Source of the DNA: an uncultured virus (IMG/VR IMGVR_UViG_3300042453_001749)
Lineage: Duplodnaviria; Heunggongvirae; Uroviricota; Caudoviricetes
Strand: one strand, 5' to 3'
DNA length: 20,000 nucleotides
IMG/VR virus record: IMGVR_UViG_3300042453_001749
Positions within the stretch are counted from its first letter, which is position 1. Each line of letters begins with the position of its first letter. The notes below the pieces were generated by a model that saw nothing but the letters and a program-made list of their open reading frames with translations, was not told the origin of the DNA and did no database searches. Below, piece by piece: positions 1-18,481 of this stretch. The translations under genes and the position numbers were made by a program.

Positions 1-606
1 CAGAAAAAACAAGAGGAACAGGCAGATAAGAACAGGAGTTTACCTAATAGTACTCCCCCACCTCAAGTGCCTCAAGTTTTTCAAACTCCCCCCACTCAAG
101 CGCCTATTGCTGAAATACCAGCAGATAAACCTCAACCAACCTTTACAGTTCTTGGTGCAGATATTAATCTACCTGATCCTTCTCTTGTTGCTACGGCTGG
201 TGCTGTCGCAGTAGTAACTACTGCCGCTACGATAGCGTCTACAACTGTTCTTAATGCATTAAAGAACGCAGCAGAACCAATCATTAAAGAAGCAACTAAA
301 AATAAATTTAAAATCAAAATCAAACAAGTTAAACCTGTTTTACACTATGTCTTAGCAGAAGAAGGGCACGTTGATATTTTTGAATATTCTGAAAATGGGA
401 CAAAACTTGTAGAACAAGTTACTAATGTAGAGCAATATATTCGGGATCAAGTTGAGATTAATGCTCTTTACGAAATAGACAATAAGATTATTATTGATGA
501 TATTATCAAAGATAAGTTTACAAAAGAGGGCAAAGAAAGATTTAAATCTCTCTTTGCCCCCGCTAAAAAAATTGCTAAAAAATTGTCTGCTAAATTATCT
601 ATCTGA
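1..606 (+). CDS. Partial (5'-truncated) hypothetical membrane-anchored phage protein
   Basis: Frame is open from base 1 (CAG AAA AAA CAA...), so the true start is upstream of the window. Gln/Pro-rich linker, then an Ala/Thr/Val hydrophobic stretch (LVATAGAVAVVTTAATIASTTVL) and a basic C-terminal region. Stop overlaps the convergent ORF at 595-732. Confidence 0.8.
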   Translation, partial: QKKQEEQADKNRSLPNSTPPPQVPQVFQTPPTQAPIAEIPADKPQPTFTVLGADINLPDPSLVATAGAVAVVTTAATIASTTVLNALKNAAEPIIKEATKNKFKIKIKQVKPVLHYVLAEEGHVDIFEYSENGTKLVEQVTNVEQYIRDQVEINALYEIDNKIIIDDIIKDKFTKEGKERFKSLFAPAKKIAKKLSAKLSI

Positions 607-2629: not shown

Positions 2630-2730
2630 CACTTCTTCTTACCACCATTCTTTGCTTTTTTCGCTGTAGCATTACCAGAATTCTGCTTGGCGTTAGCAGA
2701 CTTACTTTTTTTATTTTTGGGTTTGCCCAT
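2629..2730 (-). CDS. 33-aa Lys-rich basic peptide (MGKPKNKKSKSANAKQNSGNATAKKAKNGGKKK)
   Basis: Translated by hand; preceded by CTAAATA (2755-2761, minus strand); stop coupled to the next start. Confidence 0.65.
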   Translation of the reverse strand: MGKPKNKKSKSANAKQNSGNATAKKAKNGGKKK

Positions 2731-3352
2731 TGACTTGCTTAGGAGGTGTCTTTATATTTAGAGATCCAACAGGGTCAATTGTAACAATTTTTGGTGGTTG
2801 TATTATTACATCAGCACAAACACTTGCATATGGACTATTTGGATGAAAGTCGATACCTGATTTTTTTGCTTCACCGCATTTCAATAACCTAACTAATTCA
2901 AAATCGAGACGTGCTTTATCCGCTTCTGCGTTTTGTCTTTTTATTTCTGTTCTTGCTCTTTCTTTACAAAGTTCTTGTAATGAACCATCGAGGGGGAAAT
3001 TAAATCCTAGACTTACACCAAAATTCCCATTATAAGATTGATAAGACTCTGGATCTTGACTCCCATTAAAATTTCCTAATGCAAATGGAGCAACGCTCAT
3101 TGTTGGACCTTGGCAACTAACCCCACCACCATAAGTATTCATTGCATAAGGACCCTGAAGCACCTGAACTGCCTGGTTAGTTACGTTACCAGTCGCAGAT
3201 GCTGAGGGTCCTGCAATATTAGTATTGCTCGGTGCTTGCTGAGCTTTACTTTTTGTCGAACCTGCAAGAGATAGTAATAATATTCCTGTTACTGTGTAAA
3301 GACAGATACCGAGTTTGTAACCGAATTTGTTTCTGTACTGCGATCTATCCAT
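2711..3352 (-). CDS. Exported hypothetical protein with beta-hairpin + coiled coil (half-TolC-like pattern), 213 aa
   Basis: Hydrophobic leader ending SKA|QQ; GPTMSVAPF...NFGVSLGFNFPLDG followed by a long charged helix; four Cys in the mature part. The only in-frame ATG overlaps the upstream gene by 64 nt. Confidence 0.75.
   Translation of the reverse strand: MDRSQYRNKFGYKLGICLYTVTGILLLSLAGSTKSKAQQAPSNTNIAGPSASATGNVTNQAVQVLQGPYAMNTYGGGVSCQGPTMSVAPFALGNFNGSQDPESYQSYNGNFGVSLGFNFPLDGSLQELCKERARTEIKRQNAEADKARLDFELVRLLKCGEAKKSGIDFHPNSPYASVCADVIIQPPKIVTIDPVGSLNIKTPPKQVNGQTQK
2755..2761 (-). promoter_or_regulatory. Putative late promoter (CTAAATA) for the Lys-rich peptide
   Basis: TATTTAG on the + strand, about 25 nt upstream of the ATG at 2730. 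Confidence 0.5.
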
Positions 3353-3648
3353 GTTTCCTTAGCCACTCCTGGGCCGAGATAAGTTTCGCTGAACTGGAAT
3401 GGAGCGCCTTGATTCATAATAGTATAATTGGCTCCAGGTGTTGGATTACCAGGAATATTGATGTTTGTTCCAGTTACAGTGTAAGATGTGCCAGTTGTAT
3501 ATTCAACTTGGCGAATTGTTTCTACAATCTTTGTAGTCGATTCTGTGGTTGCAGTGATTGTTCCTCTAGTAAAATTAGGAACAACTTGTTCAGCTAGGGC
3601 AGGACAAGAAAACCCTAGCAGGAGCAACCCTGCTAGGATACTTTTCAT
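3289..3648 (-). CDS. Exported Thr-rich beta-strand protein, 119 aa
   Basis: Signal peptide MKSILAGLLLLGFSCPALA; ATGA coupling to the upstream gene. Confidence 0.85.
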   Translation of the reverse strand: MKSILAGLLLLGFSCPALAEQVVPNFTRGTITATTESTTKIVETIRQVEYTTGTSYTVTGTNINIPGNPTPGANYTIMNQGAPFQFSETYLGPGVAKETWIDRSTETNSVTNSVSVFTQ

Positions 3649-4106
3649 TTGAATACGCTCAATTCAACGCTACGTTGTGCTGTTGCTGTAGTACCAGGAC
3701 CACCAGCAGTAACAGTAGGAACACCTGTAGGTGATAATGTACCAGCGAGAGAACCTTTGTCTCCTGCTAACTGAGTAACACTATCCCCATAAAGGTTGGG
3801 AGAAGCAATAACTCCACCAGAGACCGACTGAGTGGTGACGATTGAATCAGCAGCATTGAAACTTTCTGAGAAAGTAAATGCTTGACCTGCCGTATTAATA
3901 TCGTAAGTTCCAGCGCCACTTACACCACCGAATGAAGTTGCTTGAATATTTGTACCTGAGGCAGAATATGATGCCCCAATTCTTGTTGACTGAACCGCCG
4001 CGCCCTGTACACCTAATTGAACAGAATCAGTAATTCTTGATGTAATTTCAGCAGCACTTACAGGAGTGATAAAGAATAACGAAAAGGCTAAAAGAAGTCT
4101 TTTCAT
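3645..4106 (-). CDS. Exported Ser/Thr/Gly-rich beta-strand protein, 153 aa
   Basis: Signal peptide MKRLLLAFSLFFITPVSA; first gene of the minus-strand operon. Confidence 0.85.
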   Translation of the reverse strand: MKRLLLAFSLFFITPVSAAEITSRITDSVQLGVQGAAVQSTRIGASYSASGTNIQATSFGGVSGAGTYDINTAGQAFTFSESFNAADSIVTTQSVSGGVIASPNLYGDSVTQLAGDKGSLAGTLSPTGVPTVTAGGPGTTATAQRSVELSVFK

Positions 4107-4132: not shown

Positions 4133-4139
4133 TATTTAG
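4133..4139 (-). promoter_or_regulatory. Putative late promoter (CTAAATA) of the minus-strand operon
   Basis: TATTTAG on the + strand, about 27 nt upstream of the ATG at 4106. Confidence 0.6.
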
Positions 4140-4359: not shown

Positions 4360-5439
4360 ATGACTGCTACAATTGCTCAACAACGTTCCACAAATACCTG
4401 GAACCAATTCTGTGAGTGGGTTACTTCCACTAACAACCGTATCTATGTTGGTTGGTTCGGAGTCCTTATGATTCCTTGCCTTCTTGCTGCTACGACTTGC
4501 TTCATTATCGCATTCGTCGGTGCTCCTCCTGTGGACATTGACGGCATTCGTGAACCAGTTGCTGGTTCTCTCATGTACGGAAACAACATCATCTCTGGTG
4601 CTGTTGTTCCTTCTTCTAATGCTATTGGACTTCACTTCTATCCTATCTGGGAAGCTGCTTCTCTGGATGAATGGTTGTACAATGGTGGACCTTTCCAACT
4701 TGTTGTTTTCCACTTCCTCATCGGCATCTATGCCTATATGGGTCGTGAGTGGGAATTGTCGTATCGCCTGGGGATGCGCCCCTGGATTTGTGTTGCATAT
4801 TCCGCACCCGTTGCTGCCGCTTCTGCAGTATTCTTGGTCTATCCTTTCGGACAAGGATCGTTCTCTGATGCTATGCCTCTCGGTATTTCGGGCACGTTTA
4901 ACTACATGCTCGTCTTCCAAGCAGAACATAACATTCTTATGCATCCCTTCCATATGCTTGGAGTTGCGGGAGTATTTGGCGGATCACTCTTCAGTGCAAT
5001 GCACGGTTCTTTGGTCACTTCATCTTTAGTTCGTGAAACTACTGAAACCGAATCTCAGAACTATGGTTATAAGTTCGGTCAAGAAGAAGAGACCTACAAC
5101 ATTGTTGCTGCTCATGGTTATTTTGGTCGCCTTATTTTTCAATATGCTTCGTTCAATAACTCCCGTTCGCTGCACTTCTTCCTTGCTGCCTGGCCTGTTG
5201 TAGGTATCTGGTTCACCGCTCTTGGTGTGAGCACTATGGCTTTTAATCTCAACGGTCTGAATTTCAATCAGAGTATCCTGGACAGTCAGGGTCGTGTGCT
5301 CAATACTTGGGCAGATGTCCTGAATCGTGCTGGACTCGGAATGGAAGTGATGCATGAGAGAAATGCACATAATTTTCCTTTGGACCTCGCTGCTGCCGAA
5401 GCAACTCCTGTTGCCTTGACTGCTCCTGCGATTGGTTGA
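4360..5439 (+). CDS. psbA: Photosystem II reaction centre protein D1 (intronless)
   Basis: Unambiguous D1 sequence ([42 protein letters not shown] + C-terminal extension); Glu130 form. Confidence 0.99.
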
Positions 5440-5535: not shown

Positions 5536-5970
5536 ATGAAAACTTGTAAAATCTGCAACCAGTTAAAGCCACTTACAGAGTTCTATCAAACTGTAAGAAA
5601 CGGTAGTCCATATGGGCATCACGGAAAATGTAAAAAGTGTTATGTGAAAAAACAACAAGAAAATTACGACCCAGTAAAAAAGAGGGATGAAAATTTGAAA
5701 AGAGTTTATGGTATTGGTATTGAGGAATATAATACTCTTTTAGAAAAGCAAGGGTATAAATGTGCTATTTGTAATTCCACTGACCCGAAAGGTAGAAAAT
5801 CTGGTAGAGGTGGTGGAGTAGATGTTTTTTATGTTGACCACAATCATAAAACTGGTGAGGTTCGTGGACTTCTCTGTAATGTCTGCAATAGAACTATTGG
5901 TTATGTAAATGAAGATGTTGAGTTGATTAAGAGTATGATTGATTATGTTAAAAGGCATAGAGGTGAGTAG
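5536..5970 (+). CDS. Free-standing endonuclease VII-family homing endonuclease (F-CphI-like)
   Basis: N-terminal CxxC..CxxC; C-terminal YGI..Y..LLEKQ..CAIC..VDHNHKTGEVRGLLCNVCNRTIG EndoVII core. Position between psbA and psbD mirrors F-CphI of cyanophage S-PM2; more AT-rich than its flanks. Confidence 0.9.
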   Translation: MKTCKICNQLKPLTEFYQTVRNGSPYGHHGKCKKCYVKKQQENYDPVKKRDENLKRVYGIGIEEYNTLLEKQGYKCAICNSTDPKGRKSGRGGGVDVFYVDHNHKTGEVRGLLCNVCNRTIGYVNEDVELIKSMIDYVKRHRGE

Positions 5971-5979
5971 AAATTCCTA

Positions 5980-6013
5980 TTGACCTATTTTGTAAAGTAT
6001 TGTAAACTAAATA
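5980..6013 (+). promoter_or_regulatory. psbD promoter: sigma70-type, late box and embedded HLR1 motif
   Basis: TTGACC (5980-5985), 17 bp, TAAACT (6003-6008); CTAAATA (6007-6013); minus-strand TTTACAAT-AC-TTTACAAA (5989-6006). Confidence 0.75.
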
Positions 6014-6036
6014 TGAGAAACGATAATGGAGGATTG

Positions 6037-7098
6037 ATGGTATCATCTACGCTTACAAAACCTATTCAACAAAAAGGTTGGTTTGATTTATTAGATGATT
6101 GGTTGAAAAGGGACAGATTTGTGTTTGTTGGATGGAGTGGATTACTACTATTCCCAACTGCTTATCTTGCTCTTGGTGGATGGTTGACTGGAACAACATT
6201 CGTCACAAGTTTTTATACACACGGTTTAGCATCAAGTTATTTGGAAGGTTGCAATTTTTTAACGTCTGCGGTAAGCACCCCAGCAGACGCTATGGGTCAT
6301 TCTCTTCTTCTACTTTGGGGTCCTGAGGCTCAAGGGGATATCGTCAGGTGGTTCCAACTTGGGGGACTCTGGACTTTTGTGGCGCTCCACGGGGCCTTTA
6401 GTCTGATTGGTTTTATGCTTCGCCAGTTTGAGATTGCACGACTCGTAGGAATTAGACCGTACAATGCTATCGCGTTTTCTGGGCCTATTGCTGTTTTTGT
6501 CAGTGTGTTTCTCATGTATCCACTCGGACAATCGAGTTGGTTCTTTGCGCCGAGTTTTGGTGTTGCAGCGATTTTTAGGTTCCTCCTATTCCTACAAGGT
6601 TTTCATAATTGGACACTCAACCCCTTTCACATGATGGGAGTTGCTGGTATACTGGGAGGAGCACTGCTCTGTGCAATTCATGGTGCTACCGTAGAAAACA
6701 CACTATTTGAAGACAGTGACCAATCAAACACCTTTAAAGCATTCGAACCAACCCAAGAAGAAGAGACCTATTCGATGGTCACTGCTAATCGGTTCTGGTC
6801 TCAAATATTCGGTATTGCTTTTTCTAACAAGCGTTGGCTTCACTTCTTTATGCTCTTTGTTCCCGTCATGGGACTCTGGACAAGTTCCATTGGAATCATT
6901 GGTCTTGCCCTCAATCTTCGTGCTTACGACTTTGTATCTCAGGAAATTCGTGCGGCAGAAGATCCAGAGTTTGAAACATTTTACACGAAAAATATTCTTC
7001 TGAATGAAGGTCTTCGTGCTTGGATGGCTCCAGTAGACCAACCTCATGAGAACTTTGTCTTTCCTGAAGAAATTTTGCCGAGAGGGAATGCCCTATAA
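6037..7098 (+). CDS. psbD: Photosystem II reaction centre protein D2
   Basis: Unambiguous D2 ([20 protein letters not shown]...LPRGNAL). Start reassigned to ATG 6037 after GGAGG (6028-6032), giving 353 aa. Confidence 0.99.
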
Positions 7099-11555: not shown

Positions 11556-11933
11556 ATGCATCAAATCTTTTACTATAATTCGTTCTTAGGCGTCTATCAT
11601 CTTCAAGAGGATTATGGATCTATAGATTCTCCTCCAGATGAGATGGAAGATGCTGGCGCGTTGGAAGATCCTGTTGAGTACGATGCAGAAGAAAATATCT
11701 TAACTCCAAAGCAAATCAAAAATTCTTGCACTCTATTCAAAGCAAGAGGAAAATCTAAGTCTACGTTCAAACCATCTAACTTTATTGAGTATGATGATTT
11801 GAATACTGATGATATAATTTTCTGTGGAATTATTTTAACATGGATTGGATTTGGTACGGTATTTGAGTTAGATAATGGATCTGAAAGGATCACATCTCCA
11901 TATCTATCTTCGGGGACAGTACGATGGCTCTGA
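11556..11933 (+). CDS. Hypothetical acidic protein sharing the EDYGSI motif with the downstream giant protein, 125 aa
   Basis: YYN..QEDYGSIDSPPDEMEDAG resembles the acidic module of 11924-18481; 10-nt overlap with that gene. Confidence 0.7.
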   Translation: MHQIFYYNSFLGVYHLQEDYGSIDSPPDEMEDAGALEDPVEYDAEENILTPKQIKNSCTLFKARGKSKSTFKPSNFIEYDDLNTDDIIFCGIILTWIGFGTVFELDNGSERITSPYLSSGTVRWL

Positions 11934-14900
11934 AGATATATCTCTATCCAAGTATTTTTAGCAGCGAAGATTGGGGACTGGTAACATCCCAATCGGTTGA
12001 GTCTGTAGATCTTGGTCAGGTCTCTACGAATAATACTGATCAAGAAGACTACGGACTTGTTACTACTACAACAGATATTCCAGAAGATAAAGGTCAAGCA
12101 GATTATAGCGGTATCTCTACAGCAACCCGCACTTTTGACTACAATGAATCTTCCGTAGGAACTACGTTCACCGTTGATGATTATGGTGCTGACCTAGTTT
12201 CTACACCTTCTTATGAAGATTATGGTTCTATTGAAAATGTTGTAACTGAAGAAGATGATTATGGAAATGTATCAAGTTATTCTTCCAACTTAACTCCTTT
12301 TGGATCCTTTAGTGCATTATCTGGATCTGCCGTTGTATTTGGTGCTAACCCACCAGATCAAGATCTTATTATCACGATTTCTGGATCTGCGGTAGAGAAG
12401 AATACCGAATCCTATGTTGGTGTAGGAACCTTTAGTGTTTCTGGTTCTGCTATTGAAAGATTTAATCCCTCCTATGTTGGTACAGGAGTTGTTGCATCAT
12501 CTGATGCTCTTATTGAAAGAGTTTCCTATGACTACAATGAGCAATCAATTCTTCTTTATCAATCGCCAGAAGATTTTGGTGGTATTAGCACATCAGTAAC
12601 CATAATTGATGATTATGGTTCTATTGCAGATTCTAGTAGCGCCCAAGATACTTATGGTTCTATAGGAGTTTCTTCTGATCGTTATCCTTTTGGAACCATT
12701 GTTATTTCTGGTCAAGGTGAATTTGTAAGAGAAGTTTTAAACATTCATATTGGATCTGGAACTATTGAAGTTTCTGGAATTGCAATAGAGAAGAACACTG
12801 AATCCTATGTTGGCGTAGGAACCTTTAGTGCGTTCAGTGGATCTGCAGAAGTTTTTGGTGCGAATCCTCCAGATAAAGATGTTACCATTACGATTTCTGG
12901 ATCTGCAGTAGAGAAAAACACTGAATCTTACGTTGGCGTAGGAACCTTTAATGCTTCTGGATCATCAGTAGAAAGAAACACTGAATCCTATGTTGGTGTA
13001 GGAACCTTTAATGCTTCTGGGTCTCTTGTTGAAAGAAATACTTTCTCTTATGTTGGTGTAGGAACCTTTAGTGCATTTGGTGGAGCAGCAGAGGTCTACG
13101 GTGCGAACCCACCAGACAATGATGTTACCATTACAATCTCTGGTGAGAAAGTTGAAAGAAGAACTTATAGTTACAACGAACTTGCAGTAAATTCTGCATT
13201 TAGTGTTGATGATTATGGTGCGGATCTAGTAACTGTTCCTCCTTATGAAGATTATGGTTCGATTGAAAATTCTGTAACTGAAGAAGATGATTATGGAAAT
13301 GTATCTTCCTCACAATCTGAGAGTCCATTCGGTCTCTTTGTTATTTCTGGAGATGCAATAACAACCAGAGAAGTTGAAAATATTCATATTGGATCTGGAA
13401 CCATTGAAGTTTCTGGATCATTAGTAGAAAGAAACACTGAATCTTATGTCGGTGTAGGAACCTTTAGTGTTTCTGGATCTCTTGATATTGTTAATACATT
13501 TGTTTATATTGGTGTTGGAACCTTTAGTGCGTTCAGTGGATCTGCAGAAGTTTTTGGTGCGAATCCTCCAGATAAAGATGTTACTATTACGATTTCTGGA
13601 TCAGCAATAGAGAAGAATACAGAATCCTATGTTGGTGTAGGAACCTTTAGTGTTTCTGGATCAGCAGTAGAGAAGAATACCGAATCCTATATTGGTGTAG
13701 GAACCTTTAGTGCATTTGGTGGAGCAGCGGAGGTCTACGGTGCAAACCCACCAGATAATGATGTTCTTATTACGATCTCTGGTGAGAAGATTGAAAGAAG
13801 AACCTATAGTTACAATGAACTCGTTGTAGATTCTACATTTACTACCGATGATTACGGTGCGGATCTAGTTTCCACACCTCTTTATGAAGACTATGGTTCG
13901 ATTGAAAATTCTGTAACTGAAGAAGATGATTATGGAAATGTAACTTCTTCACAGTCAGGAAGTCCATTCGGTCTATTCAATATTAGTGGGTCTGTAGATG
14001 AGCAATTCTTTGGTGCTAAGATTCAAATAGGTTCTGGATCTATTGAAGTTTCTGGATCATTAGTAGAAAGAAACACTGAATCTTATGTCGGTGTAGGAAC
14101 CTTCAGTGCCTTTAGTGGATCTGCAGAATCGTTTGGTCCTAATCCACCAGACCAAGATCTTGTTATTACAATCTCTGGAGAGAAAATCGAAAGAGTATCT
14201 AGATCTTATGTTGGTCTTGGAACCTTTAGTTCCTTTGGTGGTTCTTCTATTGTATTTGGCGCTAATCCTCCAGATAAAGATGTTACTATCACAATCTCTG
14301 GTGAAAAGGTAGAAAGAACTCTAAGATCCTATGTTGGCGTAGGAACCTTCAGTGCATTCTCTGGTTCTGCTGAAGTCTTTGGTGCAAATCCTCCAGACAA
14401 TGATGTTACTATTACAATTTCTGGCGAGAAAGTTGAAAGAAGAACCTATAGTTATAATGAACTCGCTGTAGATTCGACATTTAGTGTTGATGATTACGGT
14501 GCGGATCTAGTTTCCACACCTCTTTATGAAGACTATGGTTCGATTGAAAATTCTGTAACTGAAGAAGATGATTATGGAAATGTAACTTCTTCACAGTCAG
14601 GAAGTCCATTCGGTCTATTTGTTATTTCTGGAGATGCAATAACAACCAGAGAAGTTGAAAATATTCATATTGGATCTGGAACTATTGAAGTTTCTGGATC
14701 TCTCATAGAGAAAAATACAGAATCCTATGTTGGTGTAGGAACTTTCAACGCTTCTGGATCTCTTGGTATTGTTAATACATTTGTTTATATTGGTCTTGGA
14801 ACCTTTAGTTCCTTTGGTGGTTCTTCTATTGTATTTGGTGCGAATCCACCAGAAAATGACGTTACCATTACGATCTCTGGTGAAAAGGTAGAAAGAACTT

Positions 14901-17900
14901 TAAGATCCTATGTTGGTGTAGGAACCTTTAATGCTTCTGGATCTCTTGTTGAAAGAAATGCATTCTCTTATGTTGGTCTTGGAACCTTTAGTGCCTTTAG
15001 TGGATCTGCAGAAGTCTTTGGTGCGAATCCACCAGAAAATGACGTTACCATTACGATCTCTGGTGAAAAGGTAGAAAGAAGAACTTATAGTTATAATGAA
15101 CTTGCTGTAGATTCTACGTTCACCGTTGATGATTATGGTGCGGATCTAGTTTCTACACCTCCTTATGAAGATTATGGTTCGATTACGAACTCGATCACTG
15201 AAGAAGATGATTATGGAAACGTAACTTCTGTAGATTCAACCAGTCCATTTGGTCTATTCAATATTAGTGGATCTGCTGATGAGCAGTTCTTTGGTGCTAA
15301 GATTCAGGTTGGATCTGGAACTATTGAAGTTTCTGGATCTGCAATAGAGAAGAACACTGAATCTTATATTGGTCTTGGAACCTTTAGTTCTTTTGGTGGT
15401 TCTTCCGTTGTATTTGGTGCTAATCCTCCAGATGATGACGTTACTATCACAATCTCTGGTGAAAAGGTAGAAAGAACTCTAAGATCTTATGTTGGTGTAG
15501 GAACCTTTGATGCTTCTGGATCCGCTAACACGTTTGTAAATGCTCAGAAGATACATATTGGTTCTGGAACTATTGAAGTTTCTGGATCATTAGTAGAAAG
15601 AAACACTGAATCTTATGTCGGTGTAGGAACCTTTAATGCTTCTGGATCTCTTGTTGAAAGAAATACTTTCTCTTATGTCGGTGTAGGAACCTTTAGTTCC
15701 TTTGGTGGAACTGTTGAATCCGTTTCCTATGATTACAATGAACAATCAATTTTCCTATCTCAACCATCACAAGATTATGGTGGTATTGGTACATCAGTAA
15801 CCATAGTTGATGATTATGGTTCTATTGCAGATTCTACTGGTGCTCAACAATCAGATTATGGTTCAGTAGCGATTTCTTCTGATCGCTATCCATTTGGTTC
15901 CTTTACAATTTCTGGATTTGCTAATGAATCCTTTACTCCATCTACTTATGTCGGTGTAGGAACCTTTAATGCTTCTGGATCTCTTGTTGAAAGAAATACT
16001 TTCTCTTATGTTGGCCTTGGAACCTTTAGCGCATTTGGTGGATCTGCAGTTGTATTTGGTGCGAACCCACCAGATAAAGATGTTATCATTACGATTTCTG
16101 GCGAAAAGATTGAGAGAATAAGCAAATCTTACGTTGGTACATCTGATAATCAAATTATAGATCTAAATGAAGATACTGGAAGTGAAGATTTTGGTTCAGT
16201 AGATGATCCAAACACTTCTTATGAAGATGCTGGAGGGCTACTTAATTTAACTTCAATTCTAATTGAAGGGACAGTTACCGAATCTTTCGTTCCAACAAGT
16301 TATCAAGGATCTGGATCTGCTGAATTCTTTGGATCTGCTAAGGAATCCTTTACTCCAACATCATATATTGGACTTGGAACCTTTAGTGCGTTTGGTGGAT
16401 CCGCAGTTGTATTTGGTGCAAATCCACCAGATGATGATGTTACTATTACTATCTCTGGCGAGAAAGTTGAAAGAAGAACCTATAGTTACAACGAACTCGC
16501 TATAGATTCTTCTTTCACCGTTGATGATTATGGTGCGGATCTAGTTTCTACACCTCCTTATGAAGATTATGGTTCGATTGAAAATTCTGTAACTGAAGAA
16601 GATGATTATGGAAATGTAACTTCTGTAGATTCAACCAGTCCATTTGGTCTATTCAATATTAGTGGATCTGCATCTACACCTTTCAGTAGAATTTATACTG
16701 GAGTTGGTACAATTAATGCCTCTGGAGAATCTGATATCAGATTCTTACCAGAATTTTATATTGGATCTGGATCATTTAGTTTCATTGGTGGTGCAGCAGA
16801 ATCCTTCGGACCTAATCCACCAGAGGATACTAGATTATTCTCTTTCTCTGGATCAGCTCTTGATATTAAACTTACTCATGCAAATGTTGGTTTCGGAACC
16901 TTTAGCGCATTCTCTGGATCTGCAGAAGTATTTGGTTCAAATCCACCAGATAAAGATGTTACCATTACAATATCTGGATCTGCTAATGAATCATTTACTC
17001 CAACAACATATATTGGTTTCGGATCCTTTAGCGCATTCGGTGGAGCATCTGAAGTTTATGGTGCTAACCCACCAGATAATGATGTTACCATTACGATATC
17101 TGGAGATAGGATTGAAAGAAAAACTCATGCTTATGTTGGATTTACTTCACTTTCTATTGTCGGTGGAGCGACTGGAGTTGAATTCACAGGTGAGGTAATA
17201 TACTCTGGATCTGGACAAATCAATATTGATGGTATTGGTGTTGATAAGAACATTAAGTCTTATGTTGGTCTCGGTGCATTTAGTTCTTTTGGTGGATCTG
17301 CTGAAGTAATAGGAATTAATCCTCCAGATAATGATGTTCTCATTACGATATCTGGTCAGGCAGAAACAAGAGTAATTTCTGTATACACTCATGTTGCTAC
17401 TGGAATTGCTACATTTACTGGAAATTCTGTAAACAAAGCAATATTTGATTATTCAGGTTCTGGTAGTATTCAAATTGAAGTCGATAGTAAAGAATCCTTT
17501 ACTCCAACAACATATATTGGTCTTGGAACCTTTAGTGCATTTGGTGGAGCAGCAGAGGTCTACGGTGCGAACCCACCAGACAATGATGTTACCATTACAA
17601 TCTCTGGTGAGAAGATTGAAAGAAGATCTTATGCCTATGATGGTGTAGGAACCTTAAGTATTTCTGGATCTTCAGATGTAGAGTTTATTACAGAATTCAA
17701 ACAGATTGGTTCTGGAACTATACTCATCACAGGATCTGCTAGAGAATCCTTTACTCCAGCAACTTACAATGGATTTACTGATATCCAAATCAGTGGATCT
17801 CTTAGAGAAAGTTATACTCCAGCAACTGAAATCGGATCTGGATCTTTCAGTGCATTTGGTGGGGCAGCGGAAGTCTTTGGTGCGAACCCACCAGATAATG

Positions 17901-18481
17901 ATGTTACCATTACGATCTCTGGATCTGCTGGTCAAAAGAATACAGAATCCTATGTTGGTTTTGGAACCTTCAGTGTCTTTAGTGGATCTGCAGAATCGTT
18001 TGGTCCTAATCCACCAGATCAAGATCTTGTTATTACAATCTCTGGAGAGAAAATCGAAAGAGTATCTAGATCTTATGTTGGTCTTGGAACCTTTAGTTCC
18101 TTTGGTGGTTCTGCTGAAGCCTTCACTGCGAATCCCGAAGAAGATACAAGACTCTTTACATTCTCTGGATCTGCAAACGTTTCATTCATCACAGAGTTCA
18201 AGCAGATTGGTAGCGGAACAATCACTGTTAGTGGAGATGCTCTTGTTCCAATTTCTGCTAGAATTTCTGGATCTGGATCAATTGGTATATTCAGTGGTTC
18301 TTCAATTGCCTTCGGTGCAAATCCACCAGAGAGTGATCTTCTTTTCTCAATCTTCGGAAACGCAAGAGAATCCTTTACTCCCGCTACATATATTGGATTT
18401 GGTACTGCTATATTCTCTGGAATTGCAACGGATCAAGGAAATCCATTTGTTCCTGGAACGGCATTTATTCAAATCATCTAA
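11924..18481 (+). CDS. Giant modular repeat protein (probable virion fibre/structural protein), 2185 aa
   Basis: Uninterrupted ORF built from ~20-aa (YVGVGTFNASGSLVERNTES), 41-aa (…FGANPPDxDVTITISG…) and ~71-aa acidic triple-DYG modules; lies in the late structural cluster. Confidence 0.9.
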   Translation: MALKIYLYPSIFSSEDWGLVTSQSVESVDLGQVSTNNTDQEDYGLVTTTTDIPEDKGQADYSGISTATRTFDYNESSVGTTFTVDDYGADLVSTPSYEDYGSIENVVTEEDDYGNVSSYSSNLTPFGSFSALSGSAVVFGANPPDQDLIITISGSAVEKNTESYVGVGTFSVSGSAIERFNPSYVGTGVVASSDALIERVSYDYNEQSILLYQSPEDFGGISTSVTIIDDYGSIADSSSAQDTYGSIGVSSDRYPFGTIVISGQGEFVREVLNIHIGSGTIEVSGIAIEKNTESYVGVGTFSAFSGSAEVFGANPPDKDVTITISGSAVEKNTESYVGVGTFNASGSSVERNTESYVGVGTFNASGSLVERNTFSYVGVGTFSAFGGAAEVYGANPPDNDVTITISGEKVERRTYSYNELAVNSAFSVDDYGADLVTVPPYEDYGSIENSVTEEDDYGNVSSSQSESPFGLFVISGDAITTREVENIHIGSGTIEVSGSLVERNTESYVGVGTFSVSGSLDIVNTFVYIGVGTFSAFSGSAEVFGANPPDKDVTITISGSAIEKNTESYVGVGTFSVSGSAVEKNTESYIGVGTFSAFGGAAEVYGANPPDNDVLITISGEKIERRTYSYNELVVDSTFTTDDYGADLVSTPLYEDYGSIENSVTEEDDYGNVTSSQSGSPFGLFNISGSVDEQFFGAKIQIGSGSIEVSGSLVERNTESYVGVGTFSAFSGSAESFGPNPPDQDLVITISGEKIERVSRSYVGLGTFSSFGGSSIVFGANPPDKDVTITISGEKVERTLRSYVGVGTFSAFSGSAEVFGANPPDNDVTITISGEKVERRTYSYNELAVDSTFSVDDYGADLVSTPLYEDYGSIENSVTEEDDYGNVTSSQSGSPFGLFVISGDAITTREVENIHIGSGTIEVSGSLIEKNTESYVGVGTFNASGSLGIVNTFVYIGLGTFSSFGGSSIVFGANPPENDVTITISGEKVERTLRSYVGVGTFNASGSLVERNAFSYVGLGTFSAFSGSAEVFGANPPENDVTITISGEKVERRTYSYNELAVDSTFTVDDYGADLVSTPPYEDYGSITNSITEEDDYGNVTSVDSTSPFGLFNISGSADEQFFGAKIQVGSGTIEVSGSAIEKNTESYIGLGTFSSFGGSSVVFGANPPDDDVTITISGEKVERTLRSYVGVGTFDASGSANTFVNAQKIHIGSGTIEVSGSLVERNTESYVGVGTFNASGSLVERNTFSYVGVGTFSSFGGTVESVSYDYNEQSIFLSQPSQDYGGIGTSVTIVDDYGSIADSTGAQQSDYGSVAISSDRYPFGSFTISGFANESFTPSTYVGVGTFNASGSLVERNTFSYVGLGTFSAFGGSAVVFGANPPDKDVIITISGEKIERISKSYVGTSDNQIIDLNEDTGSEDFGSVDDPNTSYEDAGGLLNLTSILIEGTVTESFVPTSYQGSGSAEFFGSAKESFTPTSYIGLGTFSAFGGSAVVFGANPPDDDVTITISGEKVERRTYSYNELAIDSSFTVDDYGADLVSTPPYEDYGSIENSVTEEDDYGNVTSVDSTSPFGLFNISGSASTPFSRIYTGVGTINASGESDIRFLPEFYIGSGSFSFIGGAAESFGPNPPEDTRLFSFSGSALDIKLTHANVGFGTFSAFSGSAEVFGSNPPDKDVTITISGSANESFTPTTYIGFGSFSAFGGASEVYGANPPDNDVTITISGDRIERKTHAYVGFTSLSIVGGATGVEFTGEVIYSGSGQINIDGIGVDKNIKSYVGLGAFSSFGGSAEVIGINPPDNDVLITISGQAETRVISVYTHVATGIATFTGNSVNKAIFDYSGSGSIQIEVDSKESFTPTTYIGLGTFSAFGGAAEVYGANPPDNDVTITISGEKIERRSYAYDGVGTLSISGSSDVEFITEFKQIGSGTILITGSARESFTPATYNGFTDIQISGSLRESYTPATEIGSGSFSAFGGAAEVFGANPPDNDVTITISGSAGQKNTESYVGFGTFSVFSGSAESFGPNPPDQDLVITISGEKIERVSRSYVGLGTFSSFGGSAEAFTANPEEDTRLFTFSGSANVSFITEFKQIGSGTITVSGDALVPISARISGSGSIGIFSGSSIAFGANPPESDLLFSIFGNARESFTPATYIGFGTAIFSGIATDQGNPFVPGTAFIQII
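12140..18420 (+). repeat. Intragenic coding repeat array
   Basis: Many near-identical DNA blocks (e.g. GGAACCTTTAGTGC, GAAGAAGATGATTATGGAAATGTA), all in frame. Confidence 0.95.

Follow-up and report, generated by a model that had tools for sequence, protein, structure and literature searches.

The 20,000-nucleotide stretch analysed here (the window; IMG/VR record IMGVR_UViG_3300042453_001749, an uncultured virus of the Caudoviricetes) comes from a T4-like cyanophage (Kyanoviridae). Among its genes are psbA (4360-5439) and psbD (~6040-7098) with an endonuclease VII-like gene between them, and tail-fibre-like and virion genes lie further along. The closest named relative is Synechococcus phage DSL-LC03 (~80% DNA identity over 59% of a 2.9-kb query), and a 36-kb virus record (G001) encodes proteins identical to those of the window. 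Our subject is p213, the 213-residue product of the last of three co-oriented genes (p153, p119 and p213, here called the cassette). We propose that it is a laterally associating ring subunit, probably of a pore in the host outer membrane. An earlier note, made from the DNA letters alone, had read this region as half-TolC-like, a single repeat with one beta hairpin followed by one long helix. The peptide it quoted is encoded exactly by the minus strand and corresponds to residues 80-152 of p213; residues 77-165 map to 2860-3125. The gene and the parts of its product are the following.

2711..3352, minus strand: p213 gene (213 aa), an open reading frame (ORF); PHROG 848/1755, T4-GC 235; homologue of Syn9 gp165 and P-HM2 PHM2_195.
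3242..3352, minus strand: residues 1-37, predicted signal peptide of the Sec type with a basic n-region and a hydrophobic core, as judged from the alignments and from helix 7-30 of the model.
3149..3241, minus strand: residues 38-68, N-terminal stretch, the most conserved part (APSNTNIAGP..GNVTNQAVQVLQGP); low confidence in the monomer model, with alternate residues 59, 61, 63, 65 and 67 contacting the neighbour in the four-copy model.
2999..3103, minus strand: residues 84-118, predicted beta hairpin; hydrophobic face 85, 87, 91 and 111, 113, 115, 117, 119, 121; polar or small face 84, 86, 88 and 110, 112, 114, 116, 118.
2861..2986, minus strand: residues 123-164, predicted single long helix, packing parallel to the neighbour's helix in the four-copy model; 42 or 35 residues in the family.
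2783..2860, minus strand: residues 165-190, C-terminal loop with conserved G166, F169, HP, SPY, C179 and D181; confident in the model, contacting the neighbouring copy.

By its sequence p213 is a member of the cyanophage family T4-GC 235 / PHROG 848 (E = 8e-55 for PHROG 848 and 1e-47 in the PHROG search; 34.6% identity to Syn9 gp165, E = 4e-28), and its position after the T4-GC 237 and T4-GC 236 genes fits this assignment as well. The order p153/p119/p213 has its counterparts in Syn9 gp167/gp166/gp165 and P-HM2 PHM2_197/196/195. Judged by sequence and order, T4-GC 235/236/237, PHROG 848/1755, 650 and 564 and Pfam DUF6322 are the same families as the window's genes. The three T4-GC clusters are listed in supplementary file 3 of PMC3037559, all of them annotated 'hypothetical protein', and in the literature on these clusters or on DUF6322 we found no published function or structure.

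The family is large and confined to one group of hosts. Among 1537 candidates from a collection clustered at 90%, 1319 proteins are related to p213 at E <= 0.001, and clustering at 50% leaves 320 representatives. It occurs in 462 phage records; wherever these name a host, it is Synechococcus or Prochlorococcus. These phages span T4-like myoviruses, T7-like podoviruses (S-TIP37, P-SSP2, P-SSP3, KBS-P-1A, SS120-1, P-SCSP1), S-TIM5 and S-SKS1. We also retrieved 27 loci from genome collections, mostly contigs of metagenome-assembled genomes (MAGs) or single cells that resemble phage DNA; upstream of p213 lies p119, directly adjacent, in 22 of them and p153 in 13. At 6001-6081, a 189.8-kb contig binned as Pelagibacterales (L029) encodes 27 residues that match the conserved N-terminal segment of p213 with 96% identity. 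Its length is that of a cyanomyovirus, so that a mis-binned phage or a gene fragment is the probable explanation.

Conservation was assessed on an alignment of 77 sequences, with columns that hold fewer residues counted out of 76 or 73. The -1 position of the predicted cleavage site is small in all 73 sequences that have this column (A37 in 67, S in 4, G in 2), and the signal peptide would be cleaved after A37. Four Cys residues are invariant, C80 (77/77), C129 (76/76), C159 (77/77) and C179 (77/77), and in 75 of the 77 sequences the mature part contains no further Cys beyond these four. This pattern fits two disulfides in an exported protein. P83 is found in 51/77 sequences, and P120, L121 and D122 in 75/76, 75/76 and 70/76, respectively.

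The AlphaFold2 model of p213, built from the same 77 sequences, has a mean predicted local distance difference test score (pLDDT) of 74.8 and a predicted template modelling score (pTM) of 0.47. It consists of helix 7-30, a low-confidence region (37-63), two short strands (71-74 and 78-81), a hairpin with two strands of 13 residues each (84-96 and 106-118), a 42-residue helix (123-164) and a confident C-terminal loop. The mean pLDDT of 10-residue blocks over residues 121-180 is 89-96. When hydropathy is averaged over the 77 sequences, residues 109-122 alternate perfectly: F111, V113, L115, F117, F119 and L121 are hydrophobic, and N110, G112, S114, G116, N118, P120 and D122 are polar or small. 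The period-2 hydrophobic signal peaks here within mature p213 (score 2.12), a value that was reached by the maximum in 42 of 5000 column shuffles. Strand 1 alternates weakly (0.59), because the conserved P89-F90 step breaks the pattern after L/M85 and I/F/L87 have faced one way.

The tip of the hairpin is the insertion site of the family, with an F90-G112 spacing that runs from 16 to 113 residues (median 21). Among the best 150 of the 320 representatives, some relatives contain two matched stretches, which reflect an insertion at the hairpin tip and not a duplication. The helix has 42 residues in 55 sequences and 35 in 19, exactly one heptad apart, a difference that could be accommodated by regular packing in a helical bundle. 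The architecture put forward in the earlier note, one amphipathic hairpin and one long helix per chain with flanking Cys residues (invariant in the family), is borne out by the model and the 77-sequence alignment, with the reservation that the amphipathic character is strong in strand 2 and weak in strand 1. The feature is real, conserved and more than chance.

Complexes were predicted with four copies of residues 38-192 in three runs, together with three controls that used unrelated proteins. The interaction prediction score from aligned errors (ipSAE) was 0.66, 0.66 and 0.67, compared with 0.00 for the best of the controls; at least 87% of the contacts were common to the runs and the partner pLDDT was at least 66. 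The mark that the tool sets for ipSAE is reached by 20 of 30 proteins solved as same-chain pairs and by 1 of 23 solved as single chains, a calibration that was made on two copies (not four) and with a different alignment source, for a score that expresses the model's own confidence. In the predicted assembly, residues 83-85 of strand 1 pair with the end of strand 2 (119-121) in the next copy, and the helices lie parallel, side by side, with 130-144 against 125-142 of the neighbour. The alternate residues of the N-terminal stretch and the C-terminal loop likewise contact the neighbour. With four copies modelled, these contacts are arranged as one would expect in a ring whose subunits have a sheet in common and a collar of helices. 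The oligomerisation that had been supposed for a single-repeat subunit is predicted here as lateral association; the kinship with TolC and the outer-membrane efflux proteins (OEP) that was supposed along with it did not hold up.

A ring of this kind could also be soluble. As a periplasmic oligomer, for instance a collar or scaffold on peptidoglycan or on the products of the neighbouring genes, p213 would bury the hydrophobic face of its hairpin in protein contacts. The weak amphipathicity of strand 1 would suit such an arrangement, as would the shortness of the hydrophobic stripe (4 to 6 positions per strand), and no outer-membrane targeting signal (lipobox, beta-signal) was seen in the p213 alignments. 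The alternation of strand 2 is, however, family-wide, extends over 14 residues and has aromatics at both ends, as is typical of membrane strands, and the variable insertion site lies exactly at the hairpin tip. We consider a soluble oligomer improbable.

The likeness to TolC/OEP proteins lies in the order of elements (strand, exposed loop, amphipathic strand with a P-L-D-G-like turn, long periplasmic helix) and in strands that are predicted to pair with those of neighbouring chains. The differences are equally plain. One hairpin and one helix in p213 stand against two repeats of two strands and two long helices in TolC; the p213 helices are modelled as parallel, whereas those of TolC form antiparallel coiled coils; and p213 has four invariant Cys, is encoded by a phage and lacks a pump partner. 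Six neighbours scanned with Pfam and 13 further window proteins scanned with PHROGs include neither a pump nor an adaptor, a result that covers the genes of the window.

A true but very diverged single-repeat member of the TolC/OEP family would be expected to form a 12-stranded hexameric channel-tunnel that works with an inner-membrane pump. OEP (PF02321) is indeed the only Pfam match of p213 and aligns residues 101-153 to positions 48-100 of the profile. With 12.6 bits (E = 0.12), well short of the gathering cut-off of 22, it does not rise above chance. Chains of TolC, SilC, OprM, TOprJ1, CmeC, MtrE and OprN fill most of the top of a Foldseek search with the p213 model, again at chance level (E = 0.44 or worse, TM 0.13-0.27). 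The only segment that hhalign aligned is the strand-2/turn motif (23 columns, the end of strand 2 and the P-L-D-G turn), and its probability is 5.8% against a shallow profile of nine cyanobacterial OEP proteins drawn from three cassette-carrying genomes. The OEP model bypasses the family: none of 13 p213 relatives matched it at E <= 1, and its 45 matches in these three genomes include none at the places of the three p213 homologues. Searched against PDB sequences at E <= 10, the p213 family profile retrieved no outer-membrane factor and one chance match (hemagglutinin, E = 1.7), while the p213 sequence itself gave chance matches only (E >= 0.36). NCBIfam returned no match for seven module proteins, and a search of the ESM Atlas with p213 led to unnamed viral clusters only.

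Adding the single helix per chain, in place of the up-down helix pairs of TolC, and the lack of a pump or adaptor gene among the six neighbours scanned with Pfam, we regard membership of this family as highly improbable and homology as close to refuted. The reading of p213 as half a TolC survives as architecture and analogy and fails as ancestry, since profile comparison detects no OEP relationship. The likeness is most readily explained by convergence towards a strand-turn-helix path that leads out of a membrane barrel.

The genes upstream of p213, and a more distant candidate, are described by the following features.

3289..3648, minus strand: p119 gene (119 aa, predicted to be secreted); Pfam DUF6322, PHROG 650, T4-GC 236; overlaps p213 by 64 nt.
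3645..4106, minus strand: p153 gene (153 aa, predicted to be secreted); PHROG 564, T4-GC 237; paralogue of p119.
1..606, plus strand: ORF truncated at its 5' end, Pro-rich in part, with a hydrophobic segment rich in Ala and Thr; candidate fourth member of the module (Syn9 gp164 / T4-GC 234 type).

The DUF6322 score of p119 is 58 bits (gathering cut-off 30.6) and that of p153 only 13.6. The two proteins have motifs in common, R-I-G-S-S-Y-S-V-S-G / T-G-Y-x-Y-S-V-T-G and A-F-S-F-S-Q-S / A-F-Q-F-T-E-T. Both have predicted signal peptides, which are of the AxA type in all 19 aligned p119 homologues. We considered p213 and p119 as lipoproteins and rejected this, because no signal-region Cys is conserved in p213 or in 20 aligned p119 proteins, where the cleavage sites are AxA. 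The model of p119 (pLDDT 80.1) has two very long strands, 28-51 and 94-118 (24 and 25 residues), and a small head. Its structural neighbours are only the phi29 lower collar, the stems of pore-forming toxins and flagellar ring proteins, all of them weak (Z 2.0-4.5, 10 chains; Foldseek E >= 0.0014); in these systems each subunit lends one long hairpin to a giant oligomeric barrel. What p119 and p213 share with such hairpin-barrel systems is one long hairpin per subunit that is stable only with its neighbours. The Z scores are low, however, the common element is trivial and there is no sequence similarity; p213 also adds a helix and a loop that would be locked by disulfides.

The 64-nt overlap of p119 and p213 (3289-3352, different frames) is kept in distant phage loci (L007-L010) and is not found in the host-type loci L003-L005. 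A GC-rich hairpin of 12 bp lies just inside the start of p119, at the p153/p119 junction (3612-3639; RNA -23.1 kcal/mol, z -2.0), and might determine how much of the first gene product is made relative to those encoded after it.

A frequent neighbour of the cassette is Syn9 gp164 / T4-GC 234, which has a hydrophobic segment and a basic tail; tblastn finds gp164 in 11 of the 27 loci. The truncated ORF at 1-606 matches Syn9 gp164 in its hydrophobic segment only (BLASTP, E = 0.009) and S-TIP37 gp46 at E = 1.5e-5. It may be the membrane-anchored fourth member of the module, an assignment that we regard as uncertain. On the minus strand, 1582-2328 encodes a 248-residue protein with a signal-like N-terminus and a HEGWH (HExxH) motif (PHROG 591; weak DUF6782, E = 0.056; no PDB sequence match), a candidate for an exported peptidase of the wall or envelope, encoded close to the cassette. 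Further along the same strand, at 1167-1503, lie two small overlapping ORFs of 69 and 57 residues with one hydrophobic segment each. The 57-residue product belongs to PHROG 25130/814, which has no assigned function; size and position would suit holin-like proteins. PHROG scans of the window identified no holin or endolysin beside the cassette.

The timing of the cassette was addressed through its promoter and its position.

4133..4139, minus strand: CTAAATA motif, resembling a T4 late promoter, 27 nt upstream of the p153 start codon.

The window contains 11 copies of CTAAATA (at 1190, 2755, 4133, 5488, 6007, 9303, 10236, 10329, 10464, 18478 and 19435), compared with 4.8 expected, and in 200 shuffles the count never rose to 11. 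Several of the sites precede start codons by 23-42 nt (1163, 4106, 5536, 9334, 18507), including those of a tail-fibre-assembly-like and a tail gene. The motif looks like the late promoter of this phage. CTAAATA is also the Syn9 form of the late promoter. For S-PM2 the late promoter is given as NATAAATA (PMC2984593). Upstream of the first cassette gene, at a distance of 26-37 nt, N[AC]TAAATA is present in 8 of 14 related loci, one of which is almost the same as the window, against a background rate of 0.02 per 90 nt. In each of three T7-like cyanophages inspected, p119 and p213 have the tail-fibre genes on one side and the small terminase gene on the other, which places the pair in the late region. 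On the T7 map the holin gene 17.5 occupies this position.

Expression classes have been published for P-HM2 (S6 Table, PMC5082946). PHM2_197, the counterpart of p153, is Late(E) in light and dark; PHM2_196, the counterpart of p119, is Late(D) in light and Mid(C) in the dark; and the adjacent PHM2_194 is Late(D) in both. A role of p213 or p119 as parts of the virion was rejected: both have predicted signal peptides, and a text search of the machine-read PDF supplement of PMC3037559, where the virion proteomics table is found, gave no row labels with the cluster numbers 235 and 236.

Elsewhere in the window, the endonuclease VII / HNH-like gene between psbA and psbD (5536-5970, plus strand; PHROG 2633, E = 1.5e-36) resembles a homing-endonuclease insertion. 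A 2185-residue ORF at 11924-18481 (plus strand; PHROG 11522, function not annotated) has 12 matched stretches and is probably a giant, repetitive virion or fibre protein.

Starting from the modelled fold and lateral association, we infer outer-membrane insertion, ring closure and a function as follows. p213 would be exported via Sec, its signal peptide removed, and two disulfides would lock the mature protein of ~175 residues. Mature subunits would assemble side by side into a ring, each giving one amphipathic hairpin to a shared outer-membrane beta sheet or barrel, with the variable tip facing outward, and one helix to a collar of parallel helices on its periplasmic face. The conserved N-terminal strand and the C-terminal loop would make contacts between subunits. 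The ring would be one part of a cyanophage envelope module that also contains the two secreted, long-hairpin proteins of the DUF6322 type and probably a protein anchored in the membrane, and the module would be made middle to late in infection. Its likeliest use would be to open or permeabilise the outer membrane late, which is the job of spanins in other phages. Taken as a whole (exported ring, envelope module, outer-membrane opening), this is the best explanation that we can offer, and we hold it with slightly more doubt than conviction.

The comparison with two-component spanins (lambda Rz/Rz1, T7 gp18.5/gp18.7) rests on late exported envelope proteins, overlapping genes and one member with a long periplasmic helix, and the place of the pair in T7-like cyanophages, between tail-fibre and small terminase genes, resembles the T7 lysis slot. 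Unlike spanins, the module is without a lipoprotein box, has a cleavable-type signal in place of a membrane anchor, is rich in beta structure and has copies in host chromosomes. Set beside the inner-membrane spanin partner, p213 has the long helix but a cleavable-type signal. The late promoter motif, the T7-like position and the restriction to phages of picocyanobacterial hosts count for a lytic use. We view the breaching of the outer membrane at the end of infection, as an analogue of spanins (none of which could be recognised here), as possible and open to considerable doubt. That p213, the two DUF6322 proteins and the membrane anchor build a beta-barrel-plus-helix pore, inserted from the periplasmic side to breach the outer membrane, seems somewhat unlikely.

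Copies outside phages bear on the same question. Three freshwater picocyanobacterial MAG chromosomes carry complete cassettes, in which the p213 homologue is intact and 60-64% identical to p213. The cassette region has a G+C content of 60-62%, lower than the 66-67% of its surroundings. In each of the three contigs no more than ~1 kb separates the p213 homologue from the contig end. The host-type cassette (L004, L005, L034, L035; genomes G003, G002) lies downstream of a Bestrophin-like gene.

Several observations weigh against an outer-membrane pore that serves lysis. Two of the MAG contigs (120 kb and 85 kb) carry the cassette 5-7 kb from genes for an NADH dehydrogenase subunit (ndhA), citrate synthase (gltA), HrcA and APS kinase, in the same order, and the 29 ORFs scanned in these flanks gave no Pfam match to a phage protein family. 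The p213 homologue of P-HM2, PHM2_195, is classed as Mid(C) in light and dark, not as Late (S6 Table, PMC5082946). The extreme variability of the tip suggests that diversifying pressure acts on a part exposed at the surface, and a lysis device would have no obvious need of this. p213 and the 20 aligned p119 proteins show no spanin-type lipobox, and their signals look cleavable and unlike an uncleaved anchor. As to the structure itself, strand 1 alternates weakly, the most conserved stretch (38-68) is of low confidence in the monomer model, and no solved fold matches beyond the bare helix (VIA-align best Z 5.1, over residues 122-166 only, with four chains at Z >= 5; Foldseek best E 0.44). The host-chromosome copies, the tip and the Mid class count against a purely lytic device.

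These three points would suit a non-lytic channel or surface structure, in which the ring is an outer-membrane duct that exports or polymerises the DUF6322 proteins in the manner of curli or Fap and so remodels the cell surface, for example by receptor masking against superinfection or grazing. Two paralogous secreted Thr/Ser/Gly-rich beta proteins do precede the channel-like gene; a tip that varies from 16 to 113 residues is expected of an exposed loop; the Mid class of the P-HM2 homologue agrees; and intact cassettes beside housekeeping genes in host-type chromosomes mean that the module need not kill the cell. Against such a duct, neither sequence nor fold connects the module to CsgG, FapF or ushers (nothing came from Pfam or NCBIfam), the p119 model is more like a barrel or tube subunit than an amyloid repeat, and exclusion is a poorer fit than a late function for the late-type promoter and for the location in the late region of T7-like phages. 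Taken alone we think it unlikely, and nearly as likely as outer-membrane opening.

The gene families of the cassette have been catalogued since 2010, unnamed and unstudied, and p213 and its two partners are among the most widespread unassigned cyanophage genes (462 records, several phage families, host-type copies). The proposed subunit of two strands and one helix is a new variant among oligomeric outer-membrane channels, outside the TolC family. If true, it would be a new outer-membrane pore architecture that has apparently arisen independently of TolC. With a defined structural hypothesis, that of an exported, disulfide-locked ring subunit built from a single hairpin and a single helix, the module becomes open to direct tests. 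A considerable fraction of the main primary producers in the ocean is killed by cyanophages, and we know of no account of how these phages pass the host outer membrane. If the lytic use is correct, the module would be a third phage device that disrupts the outer membrane, beside spanins and disruptin peptides, and it would account for lysis by phages of three unrelated families that are without recognisable spanins.

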